A stretch of 64,000 nucleotides of DNA from Nanobdellota archaeon (GCA_018830525.1 JAHJSH010000029.1:41526-105525); one strand, 5' to 3'; shown: positions 8,888 to 47,323, numbered from the stretch's first letter. The notes: a model not told the origin generated them from the letters alone. Program-made: numbers and translations.

Positions 8888-8917
8888 TTTTTATCCTGTA
8901 GGTAGGTCTGGTGACCT
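8888..8917 (+). repeat. family-4 element
   Basis: TTTTTATCCTGTAGGTAGGTCTGGTGACCT; stem AGGTC/GACCT around loop TGGT. Confidence 0.7.
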
Positions 8918-8921
8918 GAAA

Positions 8922-9629
8922 CTACTCTTCTTCGAGTTCCTCCCTTCGAATTACTCTGATGTTATCTAACTTAACTGTAACTGGGATTGGAACTACCGCA
9001 CCAAGTAATGATACAACAACTTCTCCTTTTGCTTTGTCGATTCGGACAACTTTTGCTTTCTCATTCTTGAAAGGTTCGGAGATAATTTCGATGATATCAT
9101 TCTTCTCAATCTTGATGTCTGCTGCGACTGGCTCGAGCATTTGTTTTATTTCGTCGTATGTAACTGTCTTTCCGATTATTCCTTTAACATAAGGTAAATT
9201 GAAAACGGCTTCTTCAGCATGTTCTCTGTCTGGAGATTCTAAGAATACATATCCCCGAAGTCCGTGAGGTCTTGCTAAAGCATAAATCCCAACCTTCTTT
9301 TTCTTGACTTTGTCTGCGATCATCTCAAGTGCCTTATCTTCTTTGTTGGTTGTAACTTTTACTACATAAATAACATTCTCAAACTCTCTCTTTGGCTTAT
9401 TTGCCCTAGCTTCCTCACGAGCGATAGCTTTATCTTTTTCAGTAACTTCTTTTTCAATTTCTTTTTCTTCTTCAGCTAATTCTGCTGTAGATTCTTCATT
9501 TGCCTCTTCTTCAGGAATTAAAGATTGCTTTTTTGAGCCTTTAATCTTTGGTGCAAAAGATTCTTCAGCAGCGTTGCTATCATCCCCTTCTTCGAGGTAG
9601 TCAAATTCATCGTCATATCCGATTGCCAT
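8922..9629 (-). CDS. spt5: transcription elongation factor Spt5 (NusG) with about 85-aa acidic N-terminal extension
   Basis: NGN domain IYVVKVTTNKEDKALEMI and KOW domain KAKVVRIDKAKGEVVVSL; secE-spt5-rpl11 order. Confidence 0.85.
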   Translation of the reverse strand: MAIGYDDEFDYLEEGDDSNAAEESFAPKIKGSKKQSLIPEEEANEESTAELAEEEKEIEKEVTEKDKAIAREEARANKPKREFENVIYVVKVTTNKEDKALEMIADKVKKKKVGIYALARPHGLRGYVFLESPDREHAEEAVFNLPYVKGIIGKTVTYDEIKQMLEPVAADIKIEKNDIIEIISEPFKNEKAKVVRIDKAKGEVVVSLLGAVVPIPVTVKLDNIRVIRREELEEE

Positions 9630-9803
9630 GGTTTCTTTCTTTTTAGAAAAAAGAAATTTCCCGCAAGTAGAAAAACTTAATTTCCAAAACTGCGTTTTGA
9701 TCTTTTTTCAAGTGTGATTTAGGGGTCGTGCCCCAGCCAGCTCAAAGATATCTAAGAACTAGATAACTAAACTAGAAATTATTGGTTTTTAAATATTTCT
9801 ATG

Positions 9804-9986
9804 TTAAAACACAGTCTTCATTGCGACAGAAATAGCGAATCCGACAGCCCCGATTATCAAAATACCAATTGCTGAAACTTTTGAGATTGTTTTGAACTCG
9901 GCCATGCTCGGTTTTTTAAGAAGTCTCCATACTCTCAAGTATTTGTGATATTGTGAAGATAATGCTCTTGTTAATTTTCCTGCCAT
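9804..9986 (-). CDS. secE: preprotein translocase SecE (Sec61 gamma)
   Basis: 60 aa with a single C-terminal TM; lies between ftsZ and spt5. Confidence 0.7.
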   Translation of the reverse strand: MAGKLTRALSSQYHKYLRVWRLLKKPSMAEFKTISKVSAIGILIIGAVGFAISVAMKTVF

Positions 9987-10023
9987 AATAATTAGAATCT
10001 GGAAGGCTTTTTAAATTTAGGGT

Positions 10024-10054
10024 TTTTACCCAGTAGGTAGATCTGGTGATCTAA
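10024..10054 (+). repeat. family-4 element
   Basis: TTTTTACCCAGTAGGTAGATCTGGTGATCTA; stem TAGATC/GATCTA around loop TGGT. Confidence 0.75.
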
Positions 10055-10057
10055 GTC

Positions 10058-12289
10058 TTATTCCTCAAAGAATTCTATTCCGAGTTCTCCTTCCATGTCT
10101 TTTCTTCGAGCTTCTTCGATAGGTAATCGTTCTCCTGAAATCTGGGGAGATTTTACTCCGGTGATGATTACCATAACCTTCAGGCTTTTTTCCATGTCTT
10201 TTGAGATTTGGGCTCCAGAGATTAGTTTTGCGTCCGGAGAGAGTTGTTCTCCAATCTTCTGGATTATTTCCTTATATTCATCTAATGCTAAGTCGGTTCC
10301 TCCAATTACGTTCACTAGGGCGCCCCGTGCGTTCTTGATATCTACATCAAGTAGAGGATTATTGAGTGCTTTTTCTACAGCCTCCATTGCCCGGTTGGTT
10401 GAGTCTGATTCTCCCATCCCAATTAATGATACCCCCCCATTCGCCATGACAGCTTTGATATCCGCAAAATCTAGGTTAACTAACCCTGAATTTGTCACCA
10501 ACTCAGTTATTCCTTTTACAGCATTAGTTAGGATTTCGTCTGCAACCCTGAACGCAGTAGGTAATGGTAAGTCTGGTGCTAAGTCTAATAGTTTGTCATT
10601 AGGAATTACAATTAATGTGTCTACGATTCCTTCCATTCGTTCTAGACCTTCCATTGCGTTCTCGATCCTTTTTGCTCCTTCGACTGTGAATGGTAATGTC
10701 ACGACCCCGATAACTAACGCGCCTTGTTTTTTTGCAATTTCTGCTACGACTGGTGCTGCGCCGGTACCCGTATTATGAACTACAAACCCTTCTGCAATAA
10801 AATTGTGGCTTTTATCGACCGTTATATCGTAAACTCCTTCGTCTCCTAATTTTTTGGTGGAGGTTATTCTATTGAATCCGAAGTTTTCAAATATTTCGTG
10901 TTTTTTTCTGCTTCTATATTTATACATAAAGCTTAAACCATTTCTTGTTTTTGGATGGGGTAATTCTTCAAGTAATTCATGGGTTTTGTATATACAAAGA
11001 TTCCACGCAGTGAAATCTTTGGCCATTTTTGAATTTGGTGCTTTGATTGATCTTGTTCTTGATGATACATTGCAAGTTCTAAGCCCGATTTCATCGCATA
11101 GTATTTTGAGTTGTTTGATTAATTTTTCGCTTGACATTTCGAATCTTATTTCTTTTTTTGGAAGACCTGATTTCCCTTTTTGAGTCAGATAGTGACCATC
11201 TGCATCGGCTAAACCAATAATAAATGCCTTCTTTTGTTCTTTTGGTAAGTTGAATACCCAATTCGGAATTTCTTTTTTATTGGCTGGGTGATTTAATCCT
11301 ATTTTGTCAAGAAACTCATAGGCTTTTTTTGAATTGCCATATAGCCAATTTGCAGAGGGAGTGGTTTTCATTTTTATGTTAAAATATTTTTCTATTAGTT
11401 TTATATAATAATTATTTTGTTTCTTGTTTATCGAAGGAGAAAAGTAAATTTTCCATGAGTTTTTTGTTTTACTTATCCAGCCATCCCCCATAAGAAAACC
11501 GAATAGTTTACAAAAGTCTTCATCGCTTTCTCCTAGAGGGATATTTATGGGAGTGCCTTCGATTAAGACATCTCTTAATATAATTACTAAGTCCTCTTTC
11601 TTTAGATTTTTTGCTTGGACCCACTCTAGTCCGAATTTTGAAAAACGGTTACTGCTTAATTTATTTAGTGGTTTAACTTTTAGGAATGGGTGGTCAAATG
11701 AAGCATTGAGTGTTCTATTTTTGGTTTTTATTTCATATACTTTTTTGATGCCGGTTTTCATAGAGGCTATTACTTTTCTTTTTACGAGTTTGTTTTTATA
11801 AAATGTAAATACTTCTTCTCCTTTTTTTATTGAGGAAATTTTTTTGGGACCTTTTATAGTTGAGACTAAAGAGTCCCCCCTTAGACATCCACCACCAAGA
11901 CCACAAGTCACAAAAACTAAATCGGAATTTGATAATTTCTTTTTTATCTCTTGTTGTTGTTCCTTCGCTGCTTCTGCTCCGATTCGTGGATTTGAACCTG
12001 CACCAAGACCTTTAGAAAGTTCTCGTCCGATTAAGATTTTTTGGTCGGCGTTTGTATAAAGAAGGTCTTGTGCGTCGGTATTTATCGCGATAATTTCTCC
12101 ACCCTTGATTCCAACTTCTCGCATTCTGGAAGTTGTGTTTCCTCCAGCACCACCAACACCTACCACTTTTATTCGCGCAGATTGTTTTCTTAGAATTTCC
12201 TCAAGTTCTCTATCAATCTCAGAATTTCCACTGCCCTGCGAAATATGTTGAACCTCAGTCATATGGTTCTCTCTTAATATATCCTCCAT
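10058..12289 (-). CDS. ftsZ: cell division GTPase FtsZ interrupted by an intein
   Basis: N-extein ...KVVGVGGAGGNT...VFVTCGLGGG and C-extein TGTGAAPVVAEIAKK...VIPNDKLL... rejoin into a normal-length FtsZ of about 371 aa. Confidence 0.9.
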   Translation of the reverse strand: MEDILRENHMTEVQHISQGSGNSEIDRELEEILRKQSARIKVVGVGGAGGNTTSRMREVGIKGGEIIAINTDAQDLLYTNADQKILIGRELSKGLGAGSNPRIGAEAAKEQQQEIKKKLSNSDLVFVTCGLGGGCLRGDSLVSTIKGPKKISSIKKGEEVFTFYKNKLVKRKVIASMKTGIKKVYEIKTKNRTLNASFDHPFLKVKPLNKLSSNRFSKFGLEWVQAKNLKKEDLVIILRDVLIEGTPINIPLGESDEDFCKLFGFLMGDGWISKTKNSWKIYFSPSINKKQNNYYIKLIEKYFNIKMKTTPSANWLYGNSKKAYEFLDKIGLNHPANKKEIPNWVFNLPKEQKKAFIIGLADADGHYLTQKGKSGLPKKEIRFEMSSEKLIKQLKILCDEIGLRTCNVSSRTRSIKAPNSKMAKDFTAWNLCIYKTHELLEELPHPKTRNGLSFMYKYRSRKKHEIFENFGFNRITSTKKLGDEGVYDITVDKSHNFIAEGFVVHNTGTGAAPVVAEIAKKQGALVIGVVTLPFTVEGAKRIENAMEGLERMEGIVDTLIVIPNDKLLDLAPDLPLPTAFRVADEILTNAVKGITELVTNSGLVNLDFADIKAVMANGGVSLIGMGESDSTNRAMEAVEKALNNPLLDVDIKNARGALVNVIGGTDLALDEYKEIIQKIGEQLSPDAKLISGAQISKDMEKSLKVMVIITGVKSPQISGERLPIEEARRKDMEGELGIEFFEE
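10772..11887 (-). mobile_element. intein (372 aa) with LAGLIDADG homing-endonuclease domain
   Basis: Starts at Cys (CLRGDSLV), ends VVHN followed by Thr; motifs LFGFLMGDGWI and IIGLADADGHY. Confidence 0.85.
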
Positions 12290-12470: not shown

Positions 12471-12488
12471 TAGGATTTAGTAATATCG

Positions 12489-13065: not shown

Positions 13066-13743
13066 TTATAAATTATTTGTCTTCGGACTTTTCTTCTCTT
13101 CGGATTTCGCTTCGACAATTTTGCTTTCAACTTTTAGTCCTAGAATCTCTTCGAACTTTGGTGCAAACATTTTTACGAAAGGTTCAAGTTCTTTTGGAAT
13201 CTTAAAAGTTACTGTCTTATCTGTTTTGTCGAAATCGAATTTCTTTCGGAAGAGGAATTCTTGTAATGCATCTATTTTTTCCTTTTCGTCAGTTATTAAT
13301 TTGTTAATCTTATATTTGTAAGTAATTTTTTTTCCGGCTAGGGGATTGTTAAAATCGACTAATGTTCGGCCCCTGTCGCTTGATAAGATTTTCACTAATT
13401 GTCCATCTAAGGCGAGTTGCATTCCTCTTTGTGGTTCGATTTTCTGTTCATGGAATAATTTTGTAGGAATCATCCTAACCATTTGAGGATTTCTTTTTCC
13501 AAATGCATCTTCGGGTTTGATATCCACGGTGAAAGACTTTCCGGGTTCTTTTCCTTCAATATCTTTATCGAATCCGCTTGGAAGCATTTTATGTCCCACA
13601 GATAAAACAAATGGTTTGATATCTTTAATATCTAGTCCACCTTTTTCTACATCTTCTTTGATATTTGTGTCGAAGATTTCATCTGTATTTGTTATATTTC
13701 CAGTGAATTCAATTTCGATGAAATCATTTTTCTTAATTGCCAT
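13066..13743 (-). CDS. FKBP-type peptidyl-prolyl cis-trans isomerase (long archaeal type)
   Basis: DFIEIEFTGN ... FVLSVGHKMLPSGFDKDIEGKEPG ... FGKRNP. Confidence 0.8.
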   Translation of the reverse strand: MAIKKNDFIEIEFTGNITNTDEIFDTNIKEDVEKGGLDIKDIKPFVLSVGHKMLPSGFDKDIEGKEPGKSFTVDIKPEDAFGKRNPQMVRMIPTKLFHEQKIEPQRGMQLALDGQLVKILSSDRGRTLVDFNNPLAGKKITYKYKINKLITDEKEKIDALQEFLFRKKFDFDKTDKTVTFKIPKELEPFVKMFAPKFEEILGLKVESKIVEAKSEEKKSPKTNNL

Positions 13744-13771
13744 AGAAGTTTTGGGGAAATTGAGTTTTTAA

Positions 13772-14008
13772 GTTTGGTGGGTTCCTTAAAAACCAAGATT
13801 TTTACCCAGTAGGTAACTCTGGTGAGTTAAGTTTGGTGGGTTCCTTAAAAACCAAGATTTTTACCCAGTAGGTAACTCTGGTGAGTTAAGTTTGGTGGGT
13901 TCCTTAAAAACCAAGATTTTTACCCAGTAGGTAAGTCTGGGGAATTAAGTTTGGTGGGTTCCTTAAAAACCAAGATTTTTACCCAGTAGGTAACTCTGGT
14001 GAGTTAAG
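13772..14008 (+). repeat. tandem array 4 x 59 bp, each unit containing one family-4 element
   Basis: GTTTGGTGGGTTCCTTAAAAACCAAGATTTTTACCCAGTAGGTAACTCTGGTGAGTTAA starting at 13772, 13831, 13890 and 13949; the third unit is degenerate. Confidence 0.9.
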
Positions 14009-14638: not shown

Positions 14639-14690
14639 AATCTGTAAAAACTAGGGAGATTTATATTTATTTATGTAGTTTGATGTTTAG

Positions 14691-14755
14691 TTAGTCTTAC
14701 GGCGGAGCCGTGTAGTAAATTCGTTCTCGTTGAAACTCGCTGCGAATTTTATGTG
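14691..14755 (+). repeat. family-2 element
   Basis: TTAGTCTTACGGCGGAGCCGTGTAGTAAATTCGTTCTCGTTGAAACTCGCTGCGAATTTTATGTG; near-identical at 18938. Confidence 0.8.
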
Positions 14756-15369: not shown

Positions 15370-15456
15370 ACAGAGATTTTATCGAGGGGTTTGAATAGTT
15401 TTTTAAACTCTTTTCTATAATCATTATTATGATATACAGAATGCCGAAGGCAATAA

Positions 15457-15518
15457 TTTTTAGATTATGCAATGGCAAAGTCCTTGCGAAATTAAAAACT
15501 AAAGTTTTGAATTTATGG
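15457..15518 (+). promoter_or_regulatory. family-1 leader cassette; TATA-like TTTTTTAAA at 15399
   Basis: TTTTAGATTATGCAATGGCAAAGTCCTTGCGAAATTAAAAACTAAAGTTTTGAATTTATGG. Confidence 0.7.
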
Positions 15519-16897
15519 TGAGCTTTTGGGTTTATGATGTTGGTTTTTTGATTCTGTTTAGTGTTTGGGTGGCTTGGTTTTTGCGTTCTAGGAAGAAATC
15601 GTTGAGTCGTGAAGGGATTATTTTTATGTATCGAACTCAATTAGGAGTTAAAGCGATTAAATATATCGGGGATAATTTCAAAAAAATGCTTCATGCGTTG
15701 AAATATGTTATTATCACTGTTGGGCTTGCTCTGATGGGGACGATGATTTGGATGTTATGGACGACGCTTTCGATTTATATTTTGCATCCAGAGATTACGA
15801 AAGTGATTAAGGCACCGCCGATTGCCCCATTGATTCCGTATTTCCCGAAGCTATTTGGGATGCAGAGTTTCTTCCCCCCGTTTTATTTCACTTATTTTAT
15901 TTTAGCTCTTGCGATTGTTGCGATTGTTCATGAGTTTAGCCACGGAATTTTTATGAGGTTGTTTAAGATTAAGATTAAGTCTACAGGGTTAGTTTTTCTT
16001 GGCCCGATTTTAGGAGCTTTTGTTGAGGAAGATCGGAAGGATTTTGAGAAGAAGACGAAAATTGAGCAGATGTCGGTTCTTGGTGCAGGGGTTTTTGCTA
16101 ATGTATTTTTCGCTTTGATATTTTATGGACTTTATGTTGCATTCTTCTTTATTTCATTTAGTGCATCGGGTTACGCGTTTAATGCTTATGCAGATGTTGC
16201 AATTCCTACTGCGAATATAACTGGTATGGAGATTCAAGGGAACCTTACAAGGATAATGACAACGAGTGGAAAAGATTTCTATGCGAATACAGCAATGCTT
16301 GAACAGATTAATCTTAGCTCATATGAATTAATCCCGGTTTATTATGATGCGCCCGCAGTAAAAATTAGGATGGAAGGTGCAATTGTGCAGATGAATGATG
16401 CGAAGATTCGAGAACAAGAAGATATTGTTACATTTATGCAAAACACTGAACCGGGAGATATGGTTAAAGTTATTACCGAAGACGAAGGGGAACAAATAGA
16501 ATATAATATTGTGCTTGGCGAGCATCCTTTAGGAAATGGACTTGGGTATTTAGGAATAGGTTATGGGCAGGTCGCGCCTAAGGGATTTATCCAAAATGCT
16601 TTGATATTTTTTATGTCGTTCAAAGATCGTTCAACTTATTATGCGCCGACTTGGGATGGGGAGTTTGTTTATTTCTTCTACCATTTACTTTGGTGGATTA
16701 TGATTATCAACTTACTCGTTGCTATTTTTAATATGTTGCCGCTTGGAATGCTTGATGGCGGGAGGTTCTTCTATCTGACAATTTGGGGAATTACTCGTTC
16801 GGAAAAAGTGGGAAAAATTGCGTCTAAGGTGATGAAGTACTTTATCTTGGCAGTCTTCGTGTTGTTGATGTATTTCTGGTTCATTAGGATTATTTAA
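15515..16897 (+). CDS. site-2 protease family (M50) membrane metalloprotease
   Basis: HEFSHG zinc motif and NMLPLGMLDGG motif; polytopic. Confidence 0.85.
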   Translation: MVSFWVYDVGFLILFSVWVAWFLRSRKKSLSREGIIFMYRTQLGVKAIKYIGDNFKKMLHALKYVIITVGLALMGTMIWMLWTTLSIYILHPEITKVIKAPPIAPLIPYFPKLFGMQSFFPPFYFTYFILALAIVAIVHEFSHGIFMRLFKIKIKSTGLVFLGPILGAFVEEDRKDFEKKTKIEQMSVLGAGVFANVFFALIFYGLYVAFFFISFSASGYAFNAYADVAIPTANITGMEIQGNLTRIMTTSGKDFYANTAMLEQINLSSYELIPVYYDAPAVKIRMEGAIVQMNDAKIREQEDIVTFMQNTEPGDMVKVITEDEGEQIEYNIVLGEHPLGNGLGYLGIGYGQVAPKGFIQNALIFFMSFKDRSTYYAPTWDGEFVYFFYHLLWWIMIINLLVAIFNMLPLGMLDGGRFFYLTIWGITRSEKVGKIASKVMKYFILAVFVLLMYFWFIRII

Positions 16898-16921: not shown

Positions 16922-17998
16922 ATGAAAAAAGTTAAGGATACTTTGAAAAAAATGGGGGAGAAAAGTAATTCAGGAATTAAAAAAGCTGGTTTAGAATTAG
17001 CTAAGGAAAAAATGACCAAAGAAGGTTATGGGATGGTCGGGGATCATAGTGCCGTAAAAGTATGTCTTTGGACTAAGCATTCAATTCGTGGAGATAGGGG
17101 TTGTTGGAAAGAAAAGTTTTATGGAATTAGCTCTGCCGGGTGTTGTCAAATGACGCCGAGTTTATTTCATTGTGAGAACAAATGTCTTCACTGCTGGAGA
17201 GACTTAACGTATACATTTAATAAAAGTATTGAGAATCCTGATGACCCTAAAAAAATTCTTGATGGAATTGTTGCAGTTCGGAAAGATTTGTTGATGGGAT
17301 TTAAGGGTCGTGAGGGAATTGATATGAAGAAGTTTGAGGAAGCACTTGAGCCAAAGTTGTATACGCTGAGTTTGTCTGGAGAGCCTACGCTTTATCCCCG
17401 GCTTGGCGAGATGTTTGCGGAGATTCGGAAGCGAGGCGCTGTTAGTTTTTTAGTTACAAATGGTTTGAATCCAGAAGTAATTAGAAATCTTTCTACTCTT
17501 CCGACACAGATTACTGTTTCTACAAATGCTCCGAATGAGAAATTGTTTTTGAAGTGGCATCGATCTACGAAGAAAGAGGCTTGGAATGTTTTTAATGAAA
17601 CGCTTGATGTTATTCGAGGATTGGGAAGGGCGCCCTCGGGCATACCCTCTGAGGAGGGCAAAGTTAGGCGGGTGATTAGATTGACTTTGGTTGATAAGGG
17701 AAAAGAAGGGAAATTTAAAGATATGACGAATATGACTGAGGAGAATGTAGGAGAGTATTGCGATTTGATTAGGAAGGCGGAGCCTGATTTTGTTCATGTT
17801 AAGGGATATAAGTCTGTTGGGTATGCTCGTCCTCGGATGGGTTATGATAATCAGCCTTGGTTTGAAGCGGTTAAGGAATATGCTTTGAAGATTGAGAAAA
17901 AGTTAGAGGATTATGAGGTTGCGGCGGAAGATGAGAGATGTTGTGTTGTTATGTTGAAGCGGAAAGGTGGAATAGATTTGAAGATTGATAAGGTTTAG
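16922..17998 (+). CDS. taw1: tRNA 4-demethylwyosine synthase (TYW1/Taw1), radical SAM
   Basis: CENKCLHC cluster motif; SLSGEPTLYP; VKGYKSVGYAR. Confidence 0.8.
   Translation: MKKVKDTLKKMGEKSNSGIKKAGLELAKEKMTKEGYGMVGDHSAVKVCLWTKHSIRGDRGCWKEKFYGISSAGCCQMTPSLFHCENKCLHCWRDLTYTFNKSIENPDDPKKILDGIVAVRKDLLMGFKGREGIDMKKFEEALEPKLYTLSLSGEPTLYPRLGEMFAEIRKRGAVSFLVTNGLNPEVIRNLSTLPTQITVSTNAPNEKLFLKWHRSTKKEAWNVFNETLDVIRGLGRAPSGIPSEEGKVRRVIRLTLVDKGKEGKFKDMTNMTEENVGEYCDLIRKAEPDFVHVKGYKSVGYARPRMGYDNQPWFEAVKEYALKIEKKLEDYEVAAEDERCCVVMLKRKGGIDLKIDKV
17630..17663 (+). repeat. family-3 GC-rich two-hairpin module in-frame in TYW1
   Basis: GCGCCCTCGGGCATACCCTCTGAGGAGGGCAAAG, encoding RAPSGIPSEEGK. Confidence 0.75.
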
Positions 17999-18818: not shown

Positions 18819-18937
18819 TGCCTAGGACACCTCCGGTTTCCTAAGGCTTCACCTTCCCGCTGAATTAGTCCACTACGCTCGGTATACATAGTTTAAGAAA
18901 ATATTTTTAGTTTATAATGATTTATGTGATGGTTTTA

Positions 18938-19062
18938 TTAGTCTTATGGCAGAGCCACGCGAGTAATTCGTTCTCGTTGAAACTTGCTGCGAATTTTATG
19001 TGATTTGTTATAAGGTCGCCTTCGGGCATACCCCTGCTGCGAGCAAGGGCAAGTTTTATAAA
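18938..19062 (+). repeat. mosaic element: family-2, then family-3 module, then TATA box, upstream of rpl1
   Basis: TTAGTCTTATGGCAGAGCCACGCGAGTAATTCGTTCTCGTTGAAACTTGCTGCGAATTTTATGTG ... GTCGCCTTCGGGCATACCCCTGCTGCGAGCAAGGGCAAGTTTTATAAA. Confidence 0.8.
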
Positions 19063-21125: not shown

Positions 21126-21500
21126 ATGATGGAGGTAGTTGGGGGGAGAAGTTTTGGGAATGTTTTTAAAGTTAATCAGTCTATTTGTTTTATGAAAAGA
21201 AGAAGTCATCGAAGACCTCGGAGGCACAACAATCCCCACCGGAATCATTCGAAACTATTAAAGATTAGTTTTTTCACGAGAAGGCATCCTCTGGCAACAG
21301 GAGTTTTACTTATTATAGCATCTTTACTTACATTCAGATTCTCTCCAGAAATCGGGGAACTAATAGGCTTTGAGGCTGGATTTTGGATATTTCTTCTTGC
21401 ATTAGGATTAGGTATTGCGGGGATATTGGTCTTAGTGGGTTGGTGGAGAAATAATATTTCTAATTTTAATGTCCAAGCTAATCTTAAGTGGAAACATTGA
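21126..21500 (+). CDS. hypothetical membrane protein
   Basis: ORF with basic N-terminus and 2-3 hydrophobic helices; start uncertain. Confidence 0.35.
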   Translation: MMEVVGGRSFGNVFKVNQSICFMKRRSHRRPRRHNNPHRNHSKLLKISFFTRRHPLATGVLLIIASLLTFRFSPEIGELIGFEAGFWIFLLALGLGIAGILVLVGWWRNNISNFNVQANLKWKH

Positions 21501-21744
21501 ATTCTACGCCTCCACCCAGAATCGAACTGGGATTATTCACAATCATGTCTTCGGAATATGATAAATTGTCGAAGACCTAATTGCTCACCCCGAAACAGCC
21601 TGGATTTCAAGAACTTGAAATCCTACGCCCGCACCCAGAATCGAACTGGGATTATTCACAATCATGTCTTCGGAATATGATAAATTGTCGAAGACCTAAT
21701 TGCTCACCCCGAAATAGCCTGACTTTCAAGAACTTGAAATCCTA
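21501..21744 (-). repeat. two 120-bp tandem units, each re-creating the 3' part of the adjacent tRNA-Ser
   Basis: Units 21501-21620 and 21621-21740. Both contain CCCAGAATCGAACTGGGA (T arm, plus strand), a GTCTTCG/CGAAGAC hairpin and GGATTTCAAGAACTTGAAATCC. Confidence 0.9.
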
Positions 21745-21825
21745 CGCCCGCACCCAGAATCGAACTGGGATGCCCCGGAGGGCCTGGATTTCAAGTCCAG
21801 TGCAATACCATTATACGATGCGGGC
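21745..21825 (-). tRNA. tRNA-Ser (anticodon UGA) with long variable arm
   Basis: Acceptor GCCCGCA/TGCGGGC, anticodon arm CTGGA-CTTGAAA-TCCAG, variable arm GCCCTCCGGGGC, T arm CCCAG-TTCGATT-CTGGG. Confidence 0.8.
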
Positions 21826-25552: not shown

Positions 25553-25596
25553 ACAATTATAGCGATTAAGAATTTATAAATCTGTGTAATTCTTGG

Positions 25597-25642: not shown

Positions 25643-25692
25643 TAGAATTTCCATTTTTTAAGGATGATGAAAAAATTATTGGGGGTAAGAGT

Positions 25693-33278: not shown

Positions 33279-33372
33279 AATGATACATAAAATATTATGC
33301 AATGACAAAGTCCTTGCGGATCACCCGGTAGGTGATCTGGTGATCAAAAAACTTGGAGGTTTTTGCTAATGG
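33276..33372 (+). promoter_or_regulatory. long family-1 cassette with embedded family-4 element, filling the rpl22-rps3 spacer
   Basis: 97 bp identical, bar one mismatch that I found, to 39668-39764; ends in SD GGAGGT and ATG 33369. Confidence 0.8.
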
Positions 33373-34163
33373 AAGCAAGAAAATTTGTTGGCGTGAGAAA
33401 GGATGAATATAACATCAAGCAATTTGTAAAGCGAATGTTCGGAAAAGGGAAAGTTTCAAAGGTTCGAATTGAGTATACCCCTGTTGGAGAAAAGATTATT
33501 ATTTCTACACATAAACCGGGTTGGATTATTGGAAAGAAAGGGGAAAAAATTAATGAGTTGACGGAAGTTTTGAAGAAGCGATTCAAGATGGAGAATCCCC
33601 ATGTAGACATTGATGAGATTTTGCATCCAGAGTTTGATGCTCAGTTAGTCGCAGATGATATTGCATTGACTCTTGAGAGATTTGGAGCTATGAAATATAA
33701 GGCTTCGGCATATAGGGCTCTTGGTAGGATTAAGAATGGTGGGGCTCTTGGAGCAGAACTAAGAGTATCTGGTAAACTTCCAAGCGATCGGGCTCGAAGT
33801 TGGAGATTTGCATTTGGATATTTGAAGAAAACTGGAGACGCTGCAAAGTTAGTTGACCGAGCAGAATCAGTGGCACATACTAAACAAGGTGTTGTTGGAA
33901 TTAAGGTTGCGATTTTATCTCCAGGAGTTAAGATGCCTGATCAGATTATTATTGATGAAGAATTTATGAACGAAGTAAAAAAGAATTCGACTTTTGACGC
34001 CCAAAATGGGCATGACCCTGCTGGTCCCGAAGTTGAAGAAACTATACGCGCTTCGCAAGTACCCTCTTCGAGGGCAAAAATTAAAAAGAAAAGGAAGTCG
34101 ACACGTAATAGTGTACCCTCTAAGAAGGATTCTGACAAACCGGCTTCATCGGGCAAGAAATAA
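33369..34163 (+). CDS. rps3: ribosomal protein S3
   Basis: KH domain IISTHKPGWIIGKKGEKINEL; ATG 33369 preceded by GGAGGT. Confidence 0.9.
   Translation: MEARKFVGVRKDEYNIKQFVKRMFGKGKVSKVRIEYTPVGEKIIISTHKPGWIIGKKGEKINELTEVLKKRFKMENPHVDIDEILHPEFDAQLVADDIALTLERFGAMKYKASAYRALGRIKNGGALGAELRVSGKLPSDRARSWRFAFGYLKKTGDAAKLVDRAESVAHTKQGVVGIKVAILSPGVKMPDQIIIDEEFMNEVKKNSTFDAQNGHDPAGPEVEETIRASQVPSSRAKIKKKRKSTRNSVPSKKDSDKPASSGKK
34048..34080 (+). repeat. family-3 module in the rps3 C-terminal tail
   Basis: GCGCTTCGCAAGTACCCTCTTCGAGGGCAAAAA. Confidence 0.65.
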
Positions 34164-34667: not shown

Positions 34668-35114
34668 ATGGTAGAAAAGAAAAAAACGACGAAAAAGAAA
34701 GTAATGAAGATAGTTGCACCCAAAGGTGTACACCAAGGAGGTGCGAGAACCTCTTCGAGGCCTCCGGCCCAGAAGGTATCCGCTAACGCGGACAAGGTCG
34801 GCAAAACTGCGGGCTGTAAAGATAGACTTTGTCCTGAACATGGAGATAGAAAATTGAAGATGCGAGGACGAACCTTTGAGGGAATTGTTATTAAGAAACT
34901 TCCCGGAAGAGTTACAATTCAATTTGAGAGAATGCTTAAGGTTCCAAAATATGAAAGATATGAAAAGCGAAAGACAAAGATCCATGCGAGATTGCCGGAT
35001 TGTATGAATGATGACGTTGCTGAAGGGGATTTGATTCAGATTGCGGAGACTCGTCCGATTTCTAAGATGATTCATTTTGTTGTAAGTAAAGTTGTGCGGA
35101 GGAAAACAGAATGA
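34668..35114 (+). CDS. rps17: ribosomal protein S17 with N-terminal extension
   Basis: GRTFEGIVIKKLPGRVTIQFER ... IHARLP. Confidence 0.88.
   Translation: MVEKKKTTKKKVMKIVAPKGVHQGGARTSSRPPAQKVSANADKVGKTAGCKDRLCPEHGDRKLKMRGRTFEGIVIKKLPGRVTIQFERMLKVPKYERYEKRKTKIHARLPDCMNDDVAEGDLIQIAETRPISKMIHFVVSKVVRRKTE
34716..34807 (+). repeat. long (92-nt) family-3 variant inside the rps17 5' region
   Basis: GCACCCAAAGGTGTACACCAAGGAGGTGCGAGAACCTCTTCGAGGCCTCCGGCCCAG...GGTCGGCAAAAC; paralogous copy at 40356. Confidence 0.85.
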
Positions 35115-35978: not shown

Positions 35979-36778
35979 TGGCACATATTAAGAAAACACA
36001 AATGCCCAAGTCGTGGCCAGTCCCGAGAAAAGGTAGGGGAAAGAGATTTGTAGCTGTGCCAAGCCATGCGACTAGTAAGGGAATTTCTTTATTGTTCTTG
36101 CTTCGAGATGTTTTAAAAATTGTTAATACTCGGAAGGAAGCAAGGCATATGACACTTAATGGGATGGTTAAAATTAATAATGTTACTCGGAAAGATGAGA
36201 ATTTTCCAGTTCAAGTTTTTGATACAGTTAACTTGTCCTCAAAGGATGACTCCTCAAAGGATGACTCCTCAAAGGATGACTCCTCAAAGGATGACTCCTC
36301 AAAGGATGACTCCTCAAAGGATGACTCCTCAAAGGATGACTCTGGTGAGCCTTCTGGTGAGCCTTCTGGTGAGCCCGAAAAGACTAAGTTGAATTATAAG
36401 TTGGAGATTATTAATAAGAAGTTTAGTTTGGTGGAGATTTCGGCTAAGGAAGCAGAGACTAAGATTGTTAAGATTGTTGGAAAGAGAACAATTGGAAAAG
36501 ATAAGATTCAGATGAACCTTGATGATGGACAGAATGTTTTGACTAAAGAGAAATTCTCCATCGGGGATTCTGTTGTTTTGAACACTAAGGAGACTAAGAT
36601 TGTTAAGATTCTTCCCTTGAAGGAAGGGGCTAAGATTGAAGTTGTTCTTGGAAAGCATGCAGGTGAGAAGGGCGAACTTGTTGGATTCGATGAATTGGTT
36701 CGGGGAAGAAATTATAAAATTAAATTAGAAGATAGGACTGTGAGTTTGCCTTATAAGACTATCTTGGTGATTGCATAA
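35978..36778 (+). CDS. rps4e: ribosomal protein S4e with internal low-complexity repeat insert
   Basis: MAHIKKTQMPKSWPVPRKGRGKRFVAVPSH. Confidence 0.9.
   Translation: MAHIKKTQMPKSWPVPRKGRGKRFVAVPSHATSKGISLLFLLRDVLKIVNTRKEARHMTLNGMVKINNVTRKDENFPVQVFDTVNLSSKDDSSKDDSSKDDSSKDDSSKDDSSKDDSSKDDSGEPSGEPSGEPEKTKLNYKLEIINKKFSLVEISAKEAETKIVKIVGKRTIGKDKIQMNLDDGQNVLTKEKFSIGDSVVLNTKETKIVKILPLKEGAKIEVVLGKHAGEKGELVGFDELVRGRNYKIKLEDRTVSLPYKTILVIA
36236..36376 (+). repeat. perfect 7 x 15 bp plus 3 x 12 bp tandem repeats in-frame in rps4e
   Basis: TCCTCAAAGGATGAC x7 (SSKDD) then TCTGGTGAGCCT x3 (SGEP). Confidence 0.95.
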
Positions 36779-38825: not shown

Positions 38826-39269
38826 ATGGTAGAAAAAGAAAAACCTACAGCGAGAAAGAAACCAGGATTTTTGAGAAAGGACTGGCACAAACATATCAAG
38901 TTAGGTAAGACTGTGAAGAAGGCTCGGAAGTGGAGAGCTGCTAAAGGGCGACAGAATAAGATTCGATTGGGAGTAAAGGGACATCAGGCAAGGCCAAAAG
39001 TTGGATGGTGTGCTGATGCGAGGACTAAAGGTTTCGTTGGAGGAATCGAGGCTGTTAGAGTAGAAAATATAAAAGAAATGGAAGCTGTGAAGGCCCTCAA
39101 CAGGCATGACTCTGGTGAGCCTAAAGGAATAGGAGTTATTATCGGATCGGTTGGGAAGAAAAAGAAAACGGAATTAATTGCAAAAGCGAAAGAAATGAAA
39201 ATTACAATTTTAAACAAATACAAAAAGGAGGAGAAGGTTGCACCGAGTGTACCCTTGGAGGGAAAATGA
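38826..39269 (+). CDS. rpl32e: ribosomal protein L32e
   Basis: PGFLRKDWHKHIKLG ... WRAAKGRQNK. Confidence 0.88.
   Translation: MVEKEKPTARKKPGFLRKDWHKHIKLGKTVKKARKWRAAKGRQNKIRLGVKGHQARPKVGWCADARTKGFVGGIEAVRVENIKEMEAVKALNRHDSGEPKGIGVIIGSVGKKKKTELIAKAKEMKITILNKYKKEEKVAPSVPLEGK
39240..39266 (+). repeat. family-3 module at the rpl32e end / rpl19e start junction
   Basis: GCACCGAGTGTACCCTTGGAGGGAAAA followed by ATGA. Confidence 0.7.
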
Positions 39270-39670: not shown

Positions 39671-39764
39671 AATGATACATAAAATATTATGCAATGACAA
39701 AGTCCTTGCGGATCACCCAGTAGGTGATCTGGTGATCAAAAAACTTGGAGGTTTTTGCTAATGG
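39668..39764 (+). promoter_or_regulatory. long family-1 cassette with embedded family-4 element, filling the rpl19e-rpl18 spacer
   Basis: Near-identical to 33276-33372. Confidence 0.8.
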
Positions 39765-40274: not shown

Positions 40275-41246
40275 ATGGCAGTTACTGGGGAGGATAAGAA
40301 AGAGAAGCAGGCAGAGGAATTGGCTGAGAAAGAAATGGAGAAAGATTTAGACGCAGCACCCAAGGATGTACACCAAGGAGGTGCGAGAACCTCTTCGAAG
40401 CCTCCGGCCCAGATGGCATCCACTGACGCGGACAAGGTCGGCAAAGAACTATTGAAAGAAATGGAGAAGGTAGTTGAAGCTGAAGAGAAAAAGAAAGATA
40501 AAAAAATATCTAAGGAATTTGATGCTAAGGCTAAGACTGATGAAGGTCGAGGAGAATGGAAGAGAGAATCTCGGGAAGACAGATTTGCTAGGGAGGCTCA
40601 GGAGAAATTGGATAATTGGGTACCGAGAACTCAGTTAGGAAAAGATGTTCGAGCTGGGAAGGTTAAGAGTATTGAGGAAGTTTTTGATGCAGGACAAAAA
40701 ATATTGGAGCCAGAAATTGTTGACCTTTTGGTTAAGGGTTTGCATACAGATACTTTATTTATTGGACAAGCAAAAGGAAAGTTTGGTGGGGGAAAACGAA
40801 GAGCATTCAGACAAACTCAAAAGAAAACTAAGGAAGGAAATGTTTTGACTTTTGGAGTTATGGCTGTTGTCGGAGATGGACACGGACATGTTGGTATTGG
40901 ATATGGGCGGGCTGCTGAAACCTTGCCGGCGAAAGAGAAAGCAGTTAGAAAAGCTAAGTTAAATATTGTTAAGATTCCTCGGGGATGTGCAAGTTATGAT
41001 TGTTCATGTGATGAGGACCATAGTATTCCTATCGCGGTTGAGGGAAAATGCTCTTCAGTAATAGTTAAGTTAATGCCGGCACCCCAGGGAACTGGTTTAG
41101 TTATTGGAAATGAAATGAAGAAGATTTTAAGGGCAGTTGGAATTAAAGACGTTTATGGAAAATGTTCTGGGAAAGTTAAAACTACATTTAATACTGCTAA
41201 GGCTTGTATGGCTGCTTTGAATAAATTAGGAGAGATTCAATATTAA
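40275..41246 (+). CDS. rps5: ribosomal protein S5 with about 100-aa N-terminal extension
   Basis: WVPRTQLGKDVRAGKV ... VVGDGHGHVGIGYGRA. Confidence 0.9.
   Translation: MAVTGEDKKEKQAEELAEKEMEKDLDAAPKDVHQGGARTSSKPPAQMASTDADKVGKELLKEMEKVVEAEEKKKDKKISKEFDAKAKTDEGRGEWKRESREDRFAREAQEKLDNWVPRTQLGKDVRAGKVKSIEEVFDAGQKILEPEIVDLLVKGLHTDTLFIGQAKGKFGGGKRRAFRQTQKKTKEGNVLTFGVMAVVGDGHGHVGIGYGRAAETLPAKEKAVRKAKLNIVKIPRGCASYDCSCDEDHSIPIAVEGKCSSVIVKLMPAPQGTGLVIGNEMKKILRAVGIKDVYGKCSGKVKTTFNTAKACMAALNKLGEIQY
40356..40446 (+). repeat. long family-3 variant inside the rps5 5' extension
   Basis: GCACCCAAGGATGTACACCAAGGAGGTGCGAGAACCTCTTCGAAGCCTCCGGCCCAG...GGTCGGCAAAG; about 90 percent identical by eye to 34716-34807. 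Confidence 0.85.
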
Positions 41247-41596: not shown

Positions 41597-42121
41597 ATGG
41601 TTAAGGTTCACAAGAGAACAAAGAATTCGCGAATTCGTGGAGCTAGAACCTGTGGTTGGGGATTCAGACAGAAGCATAAAGGTCATGGTAATAAGGGTGG
41701 TTTTGGAATGGCCGGGACTGGTAAGCGAGGAGACCATAAAAAACAATCTGCGGCAATGTCGGTTAAGGGAAAATACTTTGGGAAACAAGGAGCTACATCT
41801 AGAGGAACTCAAAAAGATAAGTCCGAAAAGATTAATTTGAAAGATATTAAGTCTAATTTCTTCAAGAAAGATGGAGATAAGATTAATTTCTCTAAACATA
41901 AGATTCTTGGAACTGGAGACGGATTTAAAGCGGAGATTACTGCTTTGAGCGCGAGTGCGGGTGCTATTGCCAAGATGGAGAAGGCTGGTGGGAAAATTAT
42001 CTTGCCAGCTAAGAAAGGTCCAGCTAAGCAATATGTTGTGAAGGAGCCCTCAATTCAGGGTACCTCTGGCGAGGCAAAGAAGGTCGAGGCTAAGGAAGAA
42101 GTTAGTGATGACAAGGAATAG
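41597..42121 (+). CDS. rpl15: ribosomal protein L15
   Basis: RTKNSRIRGARTCGWGFRQKHKGHGNKGG. Confidence 0.9.
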   Translation: MVKVHKRTKNSRIRGARTCGWGFRQKHKGHGNKGGFGMAGTGKRGDHKKQSAAMSVKGKYFGKQGATSRGTQKDKSEKINLKDIKSNFFKKDGDKINFSKHKILGTGDGFKAEITALSASAGAIAKMEKAGGKIILPAKKGPAKQYVVKEPSIQGTSGEAKKVEAKEEVSDDKE

Positions 42122-44706: not shown

Positions 44707-44736
44707 ATTTAAATAGGTGTTTTATGAAATATTAAT

Positions 44737-45135
44737 ATGACGATAACAGAGATGATGATTGCGAATCCTATTCCGGCTTTGATTGTAGTCTCGGTGTTGG
44801 TAACTTTTGTTTCTACTCTAGCACATAAGTGGTTGACGAACCAGGAACATATGAAGAGTCTTAAGAAGAGGCAGAAAGAAATTCAGAAAGAGCTTAAAGG
44901 TTGTAAGGATGAATGTTTGATGAAGGAATTGAATTCGGAAATGCTTAAGCTTACGGGCGTAATGATGAAGTCTTCATTTAAACCAATGTTTGTGACAATT
45001 ATCCCCTTCCTTCTTTTATTCTGGTGGCTTAGGGGAATTTATACTCCGATTATGGGTGGGAGCTGGATTTGGTATTATTTGGGATTTAGTATTGTTTCTT
45101 CAATAATTCTTAGAAAGGTTATGGATGTTAGCTAA
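44737..45135 (+). CDS. DUF106 / archaeal Oxa1-YidC-like membrane insertase
   Basis: TM, basic coiled coil, two TM; conserved position after secY in archaea. Confidence 0.6.
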   Translation: MTITEMMIANPIPALIVVSVLVTFVSTLAHKWLTNQEHMKSLKKRQKEIQKELKGCKDECLMKELNSEMLKLTGVMMKSSFKPMFVTIIPFLLLFWWLRGIYTPIMGGSWIWYYLGFSIVSSIILRKVMDVS

Positions 45136-45137
45136 TC

Positions 45138-45404
45138 ATGAAAGTCGAAAAGAAAATCTGGCCGCAATATTTTCAAAATATTATTGATGGTAAAAAGAAA
45201 TTTGAGTTGCGGCTGGCGGATTGGAAATGTAATGAGGGAGATATCTTGGTTCTAAAAGAATGGGATCCTGAAACGAAAGGATATACTGGGCGAGTTGTCG
45301 AGAAAAAAGTGGGTTATGTTCTTAAAACAAACGATATTAATTTTTGGCCGAAGGAAGATGTTGAAAAATATGGTTATCAGATTATTTCTTTAATTTCTCT
45401 TTAG
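45138..45404 (+). CDS. ASCH/DUF3850-like small protein
   Basis: WPQYFQNIIDGKKKFELRL ... GDILVLKEW. Confidence 0.5.
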   Translation: MKVEKKIWPQYFQNIIDGKKKFELRLADWKCNEGDILVLKEWDPETKGYTGRVVEKKVGYVLKTNDINFWPKEDVEKYGYQIISLISL

Positions 45405-46206
45405 CTTTTTTTACAAATTGTCTTGGAGTTAGAATTCCAAACTCAGAGACTATTCCTGTCACATCTTTCATATTTGTTTTATCAAATGCAGGGTTGAGGA
45501 CTTTTATTTTATCATCACGTCTATCCCAAACTTCCCATGAGGGACGTTTTTCAATTTTTACTTTATTCGTGAATTTTCCTGAAACCCCGCAAGAGTAAGT
45601 TGGAACTCGGTGGTTTTTTGCCATACGATTTAGGGTGCTTGTTCCTATTTTATTCGCCACGATATTTTTGGTAAATGCATCTGCTCCGAATAAAAAAAGG
45701 TCACACTTTGATATGGATTCTTCTGCCGCAAGGTCTGGCGCTATGAAAACTTTTATCTTTGCTTTTGCTAAATCGTTGGCAGTCGTACGTCCTTGGAGCA
45801 AGGGTTCGACTTCGGAGGTATAAACTACAAAATCTTTTTTTCTTTTTTTCTTTGCATATTTTAGAATATCAATTACCGTTGAGGAATGGCAGTGGGTGTA
45901 AATGTTCATGTCGTTCTTGATGAGCATAGCACCTTTTTTTACAGTTATCTCGTGAGATTTCTTTAAGTCATCTAGAAACTTTTTTGCAGCAGTTTCGGGA
46001 GTTTTTGATTTTAGTAATATTTTTATTGCGTTTTGCATTAAGGGTTCGGTCGGACGCGTTGCTAGGATTTTTTTTGCGGAGGATTTTTTCGGATCTAAGA
46101 GGAATGCCTTTATCCCTGCCTTCGCCACATTTTCCGCGCCTTGAATCTTCACTGATTTTATATCCTCCAAGAGACTTTTGAATCTTGTGCTCACCTTTTT
46201 TTCCAT
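45382..46206 (-). CDS. eIF-2B alpha/beta/delta-like isomerase (candidate ribose-1,5-bisphosphate isomerase)
   Basis: IQGAENVAKAG ... THCHSSTV ... GADAF family motifs; ATG 46206 preferred. Confidence 0.6.
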   Translation of the reverse strand: MEKKVSTRFKSLLEDIKSVKIQGAENVAKAGIKAFLLDPKKSSAKKILATRPTEPLMQNAIKILLKSKTPETAAKKFLDDLKKSHEITVKKGAMLIKNDMNIYTHCHSSTVIDILKYAKKKRKKDFVVYTSEVEPLLQGRTTANDLAKAKIKVFIAPDLAAEESISKCDLFLFGADAFTKNIVANKIGTSTLNRMAKNHRVPTYSCGVSGKFTNKVKIEKRPSWEVWDRRDDKIKVLNPAFDKTNMKDVTGIVSEFGILTPRQFVKKAKEKLKK

Positions 46207-46333
46207 GATAGTCTTAGTAGATATAAGTATAAAAGTTTGCCGAATACTATATAAATGAGAGATTGTTTTTAGGGGGAGGTGATAAAATGAAAGTAAACAA
46301 TAAGTTTTCATTCATCGCTCAGGAGACTTCGCG

Positions 46334-47188
46334 ATGATTGAGATGTTGATAAAACCAAAGCGGGCTGAAAGGCGGCCTTGGGAAATGTTTTTTGTGGGGT
46401 TGTTCTATGCTTCGGTTTCCTTACTTCTAGTAACATTCGTTTTTGGTAAAGATTCTATCTTGAAGGAAGGTTCGGGACTTTTAGTGGTTATCTTTACTGT
46501 TATCGCATGTTTGCCTTTTATGTATTATATTATTAAGTTAGAAGAGGGTAAGGATGTGCAGATTAATGATTCAGGGAGATTAATTAAAGAGCATTCTAAA
46601 GCAATTCATGCATTGGTGTGGCTGTTCTTAGGATTTGTCGTTGCATTTTCTTTTTGGTATTTAGTGTTGCCAGGGTCTGCAGGACAAAATTTTAATTTTC
46701 AAATAAAAACTTTCTGTGCGATTAATAGTCCCTCGAGTTATGGGAATTGTATTGAACAGCATGGAATCCCTGTCGGAACTGGGGCGGCGACTAGTGGGGA
46801 TTTCTTTTTACGAATATTTTCTAATAATGTCTATGTCTTGATATTTACGATTTTATTTTCGTTAGCGTTGGGGGCAGGGGCGATTTTTATCCTGGTTTGG
46901 AATGCTTCAGTAATTGCGGCAGCCATAGGAATCTTTGCAAAGGGAGAATTGTCGGGACTGGGGACTGGACTAATGAGATATATGATTCATGGAATCCCGG
47001 AGATTAGCGCGTATTTTGTCGGGGCATTGGCTGGGGGAATAGTTTCGGTAGCGATTATTAGAAGAGATCTTCATGGGGAAGGAACTTGGAAAATTTTGCA
47101 GGATTCTTTGATAATGGTAATTATTGCGATAGTCATTCTAATTATTGCAGCATTAATGGAAGTTTATTTGACTCCCCTTCTTTTTTAG
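46334..47188 (+). CDS. SpoIIM/DUF95-like membrane protein
   Basis: Polytopic; HGIPEISAYFVGALAGG motif. Confidence 0.55.
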   Translation: MIEMLIKPKRAERRPWEMFFVGLFYASVSLLLVTFVFGKDSILKEGSGLLVVIFTVIACLPFMYYIIKLEEGKDVQINDSGRLIKEHSKAIHALVWLFLGFVVAFSFWYLVLPGSAGQNFNFQIKTFCAINSPSSYGNCIEQHGIPVGTGAATSGDFFLRIFSNNVYVLIFTILFSLALGAGAIFILVWNASVIAAAIGIFAKGELSGLGTGLMRYMIHGIPEISAYFVGALAGGIVSVAIIRRDLHGEGTWKILQDSLIMVIIAIVILIIAALMEVYLTPLLF

Positions 47189-47323
47189 TTGCTGCGAATT
47201 TAGAGAGTGATAAATTATGCAATGGCAAAGCCCTTGCGGATCACCCAGTAGGTGATCTGGTGATCAAAAAATCTAAAGATTTTTGCTAATGGAAGTTTAT
47301 TTGACTCCTATTCTATTTTAGTT
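47154..47323 (+). repeat. 37-bp imperfect direct repeat of the gene tail flanking a long family-1 cassette
   Basis: TAATGGAAGTTTATTTGACTCC... at 47154 and 47287 (34/37 identical by my count); long family-1 cassette at 47211-47292. Confidence 0.8.

Follow-up and report, generated by a model that had tools for sequence, protein, structure and literature searches.

A strand-polarized, REP-like hairpin repeat of DPANN archaea as a probable inserted DNA unit

The small dispersed repeats (SDRs) of the Nostocaceae were reportedly described by Elhai et al. in 2008 (cited in PMC3116915 and PMC5861425) as mobile-like units of about 20 nt, which occur nested, in tandem and within other repeats and use a specific short target motif. 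To our knowledge SDRs have no known mobilizing enzyme and have been reported only in the Nostocaceae, and we are not aware that absolute strand polarity has been described for them. In repetitive extragenic palindromes (REPs), a GT[AG]G guide tetranucleotide lies 5′ of the hairpin foot (PMC6006769, PMC3733652), and a Y1 enzyme of the HUH class binds the folded strand, the bases at the hairpin foot guiding the choice of cleavage site (PMC3733652, PMC6006769, PMC5027513). Elements of the IS200/IS605 family have the lagging-strand template as their insertion target and are attracted by stalled forks and by highly transcribed loci (PMC5027513). Here we describe element E, a module of 24-26 nt composed of a ACCCAGTAGG head and a small hairpin, which we examined in a stretch of 64,000 nucleotides from a Nanobdellota archaeon (GCA_018830525.1, JAHJSH010000029.1:41526-105525; the whole stretch is called the window below). 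The window is archaeal, of low GC content (~36%), and contains a ribosomal-protein cluster, spt5, L11 and an intein-bearing ftsZ. We conclude that E is very probably a discrete, inserted and mobile DNA unit. On the sequence evidence it appears to be a hairpin repeat of a kind new for archaea, whose distinctive traits would be its occurrence across two domains and its absolute strand polarity.

The first-pass annotation of the window had reported nine copies with four different stems (AGGTC/GACCT, TAGATC/GATCTA, TAACTC/GAGTTA and TGATC/GATCA) and had singled out the third unit of a tandem array as degenerate. All of this was borne out by direct reading of the sites and by a covariance model, built from 72 distinct E copies and searched against the window with filters off: the nine copies are present at their reported places, all on the + strand, and score 37.4-49.5 bits, the next best match, at 13 bits, not being E. 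The same search found no convincing E match on the minus strand of the window. In addition, ACCCAGTAGG at up to one mismatch has 10 matches in the window where 1.2 are expected, and TCTGGTGA has 12 where 1.5 are expected. The first copy (8893..8918; 38.5 bits) has a variant head, ATCCTGTAGG, a stem of TAGGTC/GACCTG and the loop TGGT. It lies 3 nt from the stop codon of spt5 (8922) and 64 nt upstream of the start of L11, both genes being on the minus strand, and the same spt5/L11 site is occupied by E in other assemblies (loci L016, L038 and L029). The second (10028..10053, stem TAGATC/GATCTA; 48.7 bits) is 4 nt from the stop codon of ftsZ (10058) and upstream of a secE-like gene of 60 amino acids; orthologues of this site are occupied in at least seven assemblies, with differing stems. 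Between the stop codon of adk and the start of an FKBP gene, a + strand tandem array (13768..14008) comprises 4.1 units of 59 nt, each made of one arm of an A/T palindrome and one copy of E. Three of these copies (13804..13829, 13863..13888 and 13981..14006, the last being 5 nt from the adk stop at 14012) share the stem TAACTC/GAGTTA and score 49.5 bits each, and the degenerate copy (13922..13947; TAAGTC-TGGG-GAATTA; 40.9 bits) has a TGGG loop and two stem mismatches. The remaining three copies are 24 nt long and lie within a recurrent sequence that we call the family-1 leader: at 33323..33346 (ACCCGGTAGG, stem TGATC/GATCA; 37.4 bits) between rpl22 and rps3 and co-oriented with these genes; at 39715..39738 (42 bits) between rpl19e and rpl18; and at 47243..47266 (42 bits) upstream of a glycosyltransferase gene. 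Over 133 nt, the leader with E at the second of these sites is 88% identical to the copy at 33249-33381.

Read from its 5′ end, E consists of ACCCAGTAGG, T, two or three variable bases, TC, TGGT, GA, the complementary two or three bases and T, followed usually by A, and thus measures 24 nt in its short-arm form and 26 nt in its long form, the closing A included. The head of 10 nt is invariant and contains GTAG, and after it comes a hairpin of 5-6 bp in which the loop TGGT and the two loop-closing pairs TC/GA are fixed and the inner pairs vary but stay paired, about 19 positions of E being invariant or nearly so across all taxa and orders. In the alignment, GTAG occupies the (near-)invariant columns 8-11 and the stem begins at column 13, an offset of one base. 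The earlier suggestion that the stems covary beyond chance was examined by shuffling and by sliding the partner columns on the 72 distinct copies, and it held in both tests. In the six-pair stem 89.9% of the cells pair, compared with 73.1% in the shuffles (none of the 500 shuffles reached the observed value), and 88 double-sided changes were seen against 31 expected, whereas slid partner columns paired at 60% or less. All four types of Watson-Crick pair are used at two stem positions, and the T that follows AGG belongs to the stem, because T-A becomes C-G in six sequences. These data clearly show that the hairpin of E is a real, selected structure.

Several other structural readings were considered and set aside. 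CCAG could alternatively pair with CTGG, a pairing that the mismatched variant described below prefers, yet neither side of it ever varies. A loop-to-head pseudoknot and likeness to a hammerhead, a K-turn or a loop E were judged by inspection only; they found no support in Rfam and the pairs proposed for them are invariant. Mimicry of the 3′ end of 16S rRNA, or an extended Shine-Dalgarno sequence (AGGTGATC), holds for the GATC-stem variants only, and the likeness to a tRNA D-arm (GTAGCTC..TGGT..GAGC) and that to the E. coli Chi site (CTGGTG) were judged coincidental. No bulge-helix-bulge, i.e. the two 3-nt bulges set apart by a helix of 4 bp that an archaeal intron or a split tRNA would have at its junctions within a functional tRNA or rRNA, could be drawn by inspection; the tRNA-linked copies lie behind intact tRNA genes and the copies in open reading frames (ORFs) are in frame. 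Against Rfam, only tRNAs rose above threshold in the window and in four bacterial loci of the candidate phyla radiation (CPR), and the array region gave nothing under an expectation value of 2.

Beyond the window, where the first-pass annotation had anticipated further copies, pattern scans of genomes and metagenomes found about 240. An exact-pattern scan of one genome per species gave 58 loci, some 50 of which come from 17 assemblies of Woesearchaeota, Pacearchaeota, Nanoarchaeota or unnamed archaea, and the exact pattern was found at no fewer than 115 loci in metagenome contigs; with a slightly relaxed pattern there were 243 copies in 160 low-GC loci, among the matches listed, mostly in assemblies of Woesearchaeota, Pacearchaeota or Nanoarchaeota and in a few of CPR bacteria. 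Matches in high-GC bacteria (L008, L015, L020, L045, L072, L106 and others) are without complementary arms and served as chance controls. Contigs of Saccharibacteria, Paceibacterota, Yonathbacteria and other CPR types each contain one copy with a perfect stem (GATTC/GAATC or CATTC/GAATG), and one of the E-bearing CPR contigs has bacterial-type S13-S11 genes. Viral contigs contained no match to the E pattern, the array unit was unmatched in plasmid and phage collections, and a literature search by sequence string returned unrelated primer matches only. We also observed that several E arrays in public assemblies (loci L022, L026, L049, L013 and L017) stop at runs of N, which suggests that tandem arrays break or become masked during assembly and that copy numbers are underestimated. 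In one Paceibacterota contig with a single E copy (L042), several GC-rich palindromes, GGGGTCGGACCCC followed by TAC, lie at ~2450-2700; on the opposite strand these read as GTAG-tagged, REP-like units.

Evidence that E is an inserted unit comes from sites that are found both with and without it. Orthologues of the Bud32 kinase gene, which was named from a reading of its translation, carry no, one or two copies of E depending on the genome. The empty gene of one assembly reads AAACACTTC|CAAAAC, and the filled ones contain at this point one or two exact 24-nt units, which are translated in frame as RSPDHLLG, with no base duplicated or lost. A second hairpin repeat, GTAAGAAACC-AA-GGTTTCTTAC, is empty in locus L018 (GTAAGAAACC^AAGGTTTCTTAC) and is filled at ACC^AAGG in L033, L057, L011 and L004, with three different E stems. 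The family-1 leader is filled at 33323, 39715 and 47243 of the window and is empty at 51225, where GGATC^AAAAAA is unbroken (51225..51235, + strand); in locus L039 it is filled at another point, the loop of the leader's own hairpin. The first-pass annotation had already read the short leader at 51225 as a sign that the core of E was inserted with a 5-bp duplication. The leader without E is indeed there and the core does behave as an insertion, but the supposed duplication of GATCA is the 3′ arm of the hairpin, and the cleanest comparison of an empty with a filled site shows an insert of exactly 24 nt and nothing duplicated.

Copies of E also interrupt and adjoin one another. In locus L171 one E is broken at GTA^GG by a second E with a different stem, and in five loci (L028, L002, L025, L119 and L170) two copies abut; as the stems of these pairs are unlike, they are not products of slippage. 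Two assemblies that align near base for base in the flanking genes, as judged by eye, have different E variants (GATC versus ATCTC/GAGCT) at adk/FKBP and at ftsZ/secE, and the numbers of units at these two places differ between them as well. The 173 distinct junctions have a 5′ flank that is rich in T or has a pyrimidine as its last base and a 3′ flank that starts with AA[A/G], the usual junction being Y^AAR with no fixed word. The most frequent target, GGTTTTT^AAG, is one arm of A/T palindromes and reads on the other strand as CTT^AAAAAC, which is the TATA-box/terminator motif of leaderless genes. Further landing places are the inside or the edge of another E, hairpin loops, att-like duplicates of tRNA 3′ ends and, for the 24-nt form, an ORF entered in frame.

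The orientation of E tracks the chromosome strand and not the direction of genes. None of the 160 loci has E on both strands, even under relaxed criteria, the 25 pairs of separate sites within a locus all agree in strand, and so do the several contigs that were sampled at two or more loci. Most copies of E are antisense to the genes beside them, about one fifth being sense, and in the window the genes switch direction near 15 kb with both the skew and the orientation of E unchanged. Among the matches listed, GC skew is positive in the orientation of E at 46 of 51 genome loci and 90 of 105 metagenome loci, and the strand that bears E is the G/T-rich one for 154 of 185 sites, or in 105 of 124 site classes when sites are classed by neighbouring gene families. 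Genes on the E strand have a coding-strand GC skew of +0.38, compared with -0.05 for genes on the other strand, and when genes are separated by strand a non-coding strand component of about +0.21 (GC) and -0.14 (AT) is found on the E strand. The strand asymmetry is itself very large in the window and in most related loci, GC skew often being 0.2-0.5 over 8 kb. The G/T-rich strand has the sequence of the leading strand and is, in its parental form, the lagging-strand template; with composition as a proxy, the orientation of E would therefore follow the lagging-strand template. It had been left open whether E is a structured RNA or a single-stranded DNA element, and single-stranded DNA is the better fit, because the copies are oriented with the chromosome strand whichever way the genes beside them run.

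The same concordance could be read in another way, namely that E is a host signal of chromosome polarity of the Chi, KOPS or priming/fork type, which would be read from a single strand when DNA is replicated, repaired or segregated, with selection keeping one orientation per replichore. Complete strand agreement within loci and the position of E on the G/T-rich strand would be natural for such a signal, as would the density in the window, where one site is met every 10 kb or so, 19 (near-)invariant positions across orders and the retention of sites at orthologous positions. However, known polar signals are short motifs found throughout genes and not hairpin cassettes inserted into the chromosome, and a polarity signal sits poorly with the selfish-looking nested copies, the abutting dimers and trimers, the arrays of variable length, the in-frame copies of Bud32 and the att-like tRNA remnants. 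It sits no better with the replacement of E variants between close relatives or with the single exact-match copy in each CPR assembly scanned. We consider this explanation unlikely, although a polarity function would be compatible with mobility.

Nearly all copies of E are intergenic. As had been noted earlier for the window, E abuts the stop codons of spt5, ftsZ and adk; the distances are 3-5 nt, and this ftsZ contains an intein. The commonest layout, read on the strand opposite to E, is the stop codon of gene A, 3-5 nt, E, AAAAACC-NN-GGTTTTTAAGAG, 9-11 nt, CTCTTAAAAACC, 20 nt and the ATG of gene B. From the spacing of this box, which is fixed at 20-21 nt from the start of many genes, and from the established geometry of archaeal promoters, we infer that CTCTTAAAAACC is a TATA-like box and that the transcripts are leaderless. 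Many genes of the window, e.g. 5658-6383(-), 8142-8828(-), 10058-12289(-) and 13066-13743(-), have a TATA-like box (TTAAAAAC or TTTATAAA) whose end is 20-21 nt ahead of their ATG, a position that implies mostly leaderless mRNAs, and operon-internal genes use GGAGG instead. As CTT lies on one flank of E and AAAAACC on the other, E splits another copy of the TATA-like motif; since this motif sits in compact intergenic regions, E adjoins stop codons and recurs beside certain genes, the recurrent neighbours in many assemblies being secE, L11, FKBP, rpoL, S27e, rpoN and rpoE. Insertion into the promoter/terminator palindrome behind these genes thus accounts better for the proximity to stop codons than a function in 3′ untranslated regions (UTRs) does. 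E is also found in att-like partial duplicates of tRNA 3′ ends behind intact tRNA-Lys genes, in 5′ leaders and in one ORF.

These contexts bear on two further explanations. If E were a cis-acting RNA motif at mRNA ends, i.e. a 3′-UTR stabilizer or terminator or a 5′-leader regulator bound by a conserved RNA-binding protein, one would expect a covarying hairpin, copies 3-5 nt after minus-strand stop codons and in the 5′ leaders of plus-strand genes, and highly expressed translation and transcription genes as neighbours, all of which are seen. Those two contexts, however, would yield complementary RNAs, and of the 73 copies with a called neighbour, 57 have an upstream gene on the opposite strand. 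In addition, orientation tracks the chromosome strand, E is likewise found within an ORF, nested in a second E and in the DNA of tRNA remnants, the hairpin has no U-tract behind it on the gene strand, and no Rfam family was matched in the window, the four CPR loci or the array region, so that we regard an RNA motif as quite improbable. A module that works as duplex DNA in a promoter or as a regulator, for instance a transcription-factor site that lies upstream of the B recognition element (BRE) and TATA box and is copied with promoter palindromes by recombination, would account for the fixed place of E in the main context (gene A stop, E, palindrome, TATA-like box, gene B ATG) and for the TATA-like arm on the E strand, which ends 18-20 nt before the first base of the hairpin. 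We nevertheless hold it to be very unlikely: a dimeric site should conserve its half-sites, whereas the arms of E vary yet remain complementary, E also occurs without a promoter palindrome (in leaders, the Bud32 ORF, hairpin loops and CPR loci), and it splits a TATA-like motif instead of forming one.

Compared with the described systems, E resembles the REPs and their REP-associated tyrosine transposases (RAYTs) in being a short extragenic hairpin repeat present in many copies (nine in 64 kb), in having a conserved GTAG just 5′ of the stem (with the one-base offset), a tag that is constant even though the stem covaries, in lying mostly downstream of genes with occasional in-gene copies, in forming head-to-tail dimers and clusters, and in its long vertical persistence with local turnover (PMC3733652, PMC6006769, PMC3116915). 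It differs from them in its smaller size (24-26 nt, with a stem of 5-6 bp and a fixed loop of 4 nt) and its longer invariant head (10 nt), in being without inverted doublets of the BIME/REPIN type, the copies in a locus sharing one orientation and being arranged head to tail only, and in occurring in DPANN archaea and CPR bacteria with no RAYT found nearby in the window and ~1 Mb of other sequence. With IS200/IS605 elements it shares the lack of inverted terminal repeats and of target duplication, the putative recognition of a hairpin together with adjacent bases, an orientation tied to the lagging-strand template (for E, by the skew proxy) and an apparent association with highly transcribed regions and stalled forks (PMC5027513). 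Unlike them, it has a single hairpin in place of distinct left and right ends, no transposase gene and no larger E-bounded unit that we could see, and its target is the loose Y^AAR junction, not a fixed tetra- or penta-nucleotide. The SDRs are similar to E in size, nesting, tandem arrays and presence/absence differences, a comparison made by description and resting on the SDR side partly on PMC5861425 and PMC2884548; they are bacterial and their sequence is probably unrelated.

Given that the GTAG head and covarying hairpin, the lack of terminal repeats and target duplication, the head-to-tail clusters, the turnover and the fork-strand orientation all match REP/RAYT and IS200/IS605 systems, we propose that E is mobilized in trans as single-stranded DNA. 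In our preferred reading, which we consider somewhat more likely than not, E would be a non-autonomous hairpin element of the REP-like kind whose insertion takes place in single-stranded DNA at the replication fork and often splits TATA-box/terminator palindromes next to housekeeping genes; the confidence expressed here is a compromise between that which we place in a mobile unit and that which we place in an HUH-like mechanism. HUH-like single-strand transposition at the fork, taken by itself, is plausible, although we lean slightly against it. According to this model the + strand of E would fold as single-stranded DNA when exposed as lagging-strand template, and a structure-specific nuclease/ligase supplied in trans would recognize the hairpin together with the GTAG-containing head, for which HUH Y1 recognition of REPs and of IS200/IS605 ends may serve as an analogy. 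The enzyme would then cut and paste, or copy, E into nearby single-stranded targets, with forks stalled at highly expressed, head-on housekeeping genes as probable favoured sites. The invariance of E across orders would reflect recognition by the mobilizing enzyme, and any use of the hairpin at 3′ ends or in 5′ leaders would be secondary.

A co-occurring Y1/RAYT-like transposase had been suggested earlier as a partner of E, and none turned up: tblastn and Pfam checks found no Y1/HUH transposase in ~1 Mb around the 243 copies or in the window, with a sensitivity limited by the probes, which were IS200 TnpA and YafM sequences, and such an enzyme could lie elsewhere in the genomes. Two weak tblastn matches were discarded, one falling in a glycosyltransferase (Pfam) and the other antisense to an intein-bearing, signal-recognition-particle-like GTPase gene named from its translation. 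A GIY-YIG nuclease was also considered as a partner and showed no consistent linkage to E. The window does contain a stand-alone GIY-YIG gene of 100 amino acids (26429-26731(-)), a Yonathbacteria (CPR) contig has a homologue (L053, 2998-3291) at 58 nt upstream of its only E copy, and in L015 one chance match to the E pattern falls inside a GIY-YIG gene (6600-6836).

The absence of this transposase from the sequence searched counts against a REP-like element moving through single-stranded DNA, and several other observations point the same way. RAYT-class enzymes are unreported in Archaea (PMC6006769), the gene clusters that recur beside E are all housekeeping clusters, and the target of E is loosely defined, unlike the fixed tetranucleotides of IS200/IS605. 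Many copies occupy orthologous sites in divergent genomes (ftsZ/secE, spt5/L11, adk/FKBP, rpoL, S27e, rpoN and rpoE), and sites shared in this way might also reflect a host function. Neither an origin nor a terminus was seen in the window or within 10 kb past each end, so that the direction of replication is taken from composition only and no flip of E can be demonstrated. The lone hairpin is weak, at -3 to -4 kcal/mol as DNA with z-scores between -0.5 and -1.9, the counts of G.T versus A.C do not tell which strand folds, and the commonest 26-nt variant, TATCTC/GAGCTA (21 occurrences), has a T.C mismatch. As a weak hairpin is combined with a mismatch in so frequent a variant, the stability of the structure probably depends on a bound protein. 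A bolder possibility, which we offer tentatively and regard as doubtful, is that E is the smallest self-propagating DNA unit yet described, moved without a Y1 transposase by a mechanism common to DPANN archaea and CPR bacteria, and that the host has perhaps taken over its absolute replication-strand polarity to signal strand or fork. Candidates other than Y1 would be an unrecognized single-strand-specific nuclease/ligase or templated insertion at Okazaki-fragment junctions.

The window contains a number of other repeats. The family-1 leader, TTTTAGATTATGCAATGRCAAAGYCCTTGCG...AAAAA-CTAAAG-TTTTT...ATGG, is a second repeated cassette and stands ahead of unrelated genes (4618-4688, 15449-15519, 25684-25754, 33280-33365, 39672-39757, 47200-47292 and 51186-51256). 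Its small hairpin shows a compensatory G-C/A-T change, one of its copies in the window is flanked by a 37-nt duplication (47154/47287), and of two close relatives (L006 versus L046) one has it ahead of eIF5A, with ATGGTA duplicated, and the other lacks it; the leader may itself be a mobile promoter/leader cassette. Ribosomal-protein genes contain perfect in-frame tandem repeats of 15 nt (seven copies, encoding SSKDD) and 12 nt (three copies, encoding SGEP), with SGEP/SGEA-like strings in two other ribosomal proteins (36236-36375 in rps4e, 39108-39120 in rpl32e and 42059-42078 in rpl15). The CTCTGGTGAGCC strings of rps4e and rpl32e, which the first-pass annotation had taken as relatives of E, encode these low-complexity SGEP repeats and have only the 8-mer TCTGGTGA in common with it. 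A GC-rich segment of 90 nt (34716-34805 and 40356-40445, 92% identical) is part, in frame, of the N-terminal extensions of an S17-like and an S5-like gene and encodes ...PKGVHQGGARTSSRPPAQ...ADKVGK.

At 21500-21771, a unit of 119 nt repeated 2.3 times includes the 3′ part of a tRNA-Ser (gene at 21745-21825, minus strand) and looks like an att-type partial tRNA duplication; similar serial 3′-end duplicates follow tRNA-Lys in six loci (L003, L037, L051, L052, L119 and L170). Further intergenic repeat families are GTTTAGTTAGTCTTACGGCGGAGCCG... (14685-14755, 18932-19002 and 47317-47350) and AAGGGCGCCCTCGGGCATACCC (17626-17647, 19012-19033 and 25594-25615), and perfect tandem duplications of 38 nt (2.2 copies) and 75 nt (1.9 copies) lie at 511-593 and 1326-1468 respectively. 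The FtsZ of the window (10058-12289(-)) contains an intein with LAGLIDADG domains (Pfam), and in L047 a signal-recognition-particle-like GTPase (1905-5027(-)) has an apparent intein-like insert, as read from the translation only.

REP-like elements and their enzymes are regarded as bacterial, and E would either extend them to a second domain or reveal a different enzyme. Its size of 24 nt, its exact, duplication-free insertion and its complete polarity provide a testable handle on single-strand DNA transposition in organisms that still cannot be grown on their own, and E could be used as a marker of replication direction in fragmented assemblies, which its arrays also help to break, several of them stopping at runs of N. 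For the organisms that carry it, E would be a source of rearrangement of promoters and terminators and of in-frame peptide insertions.

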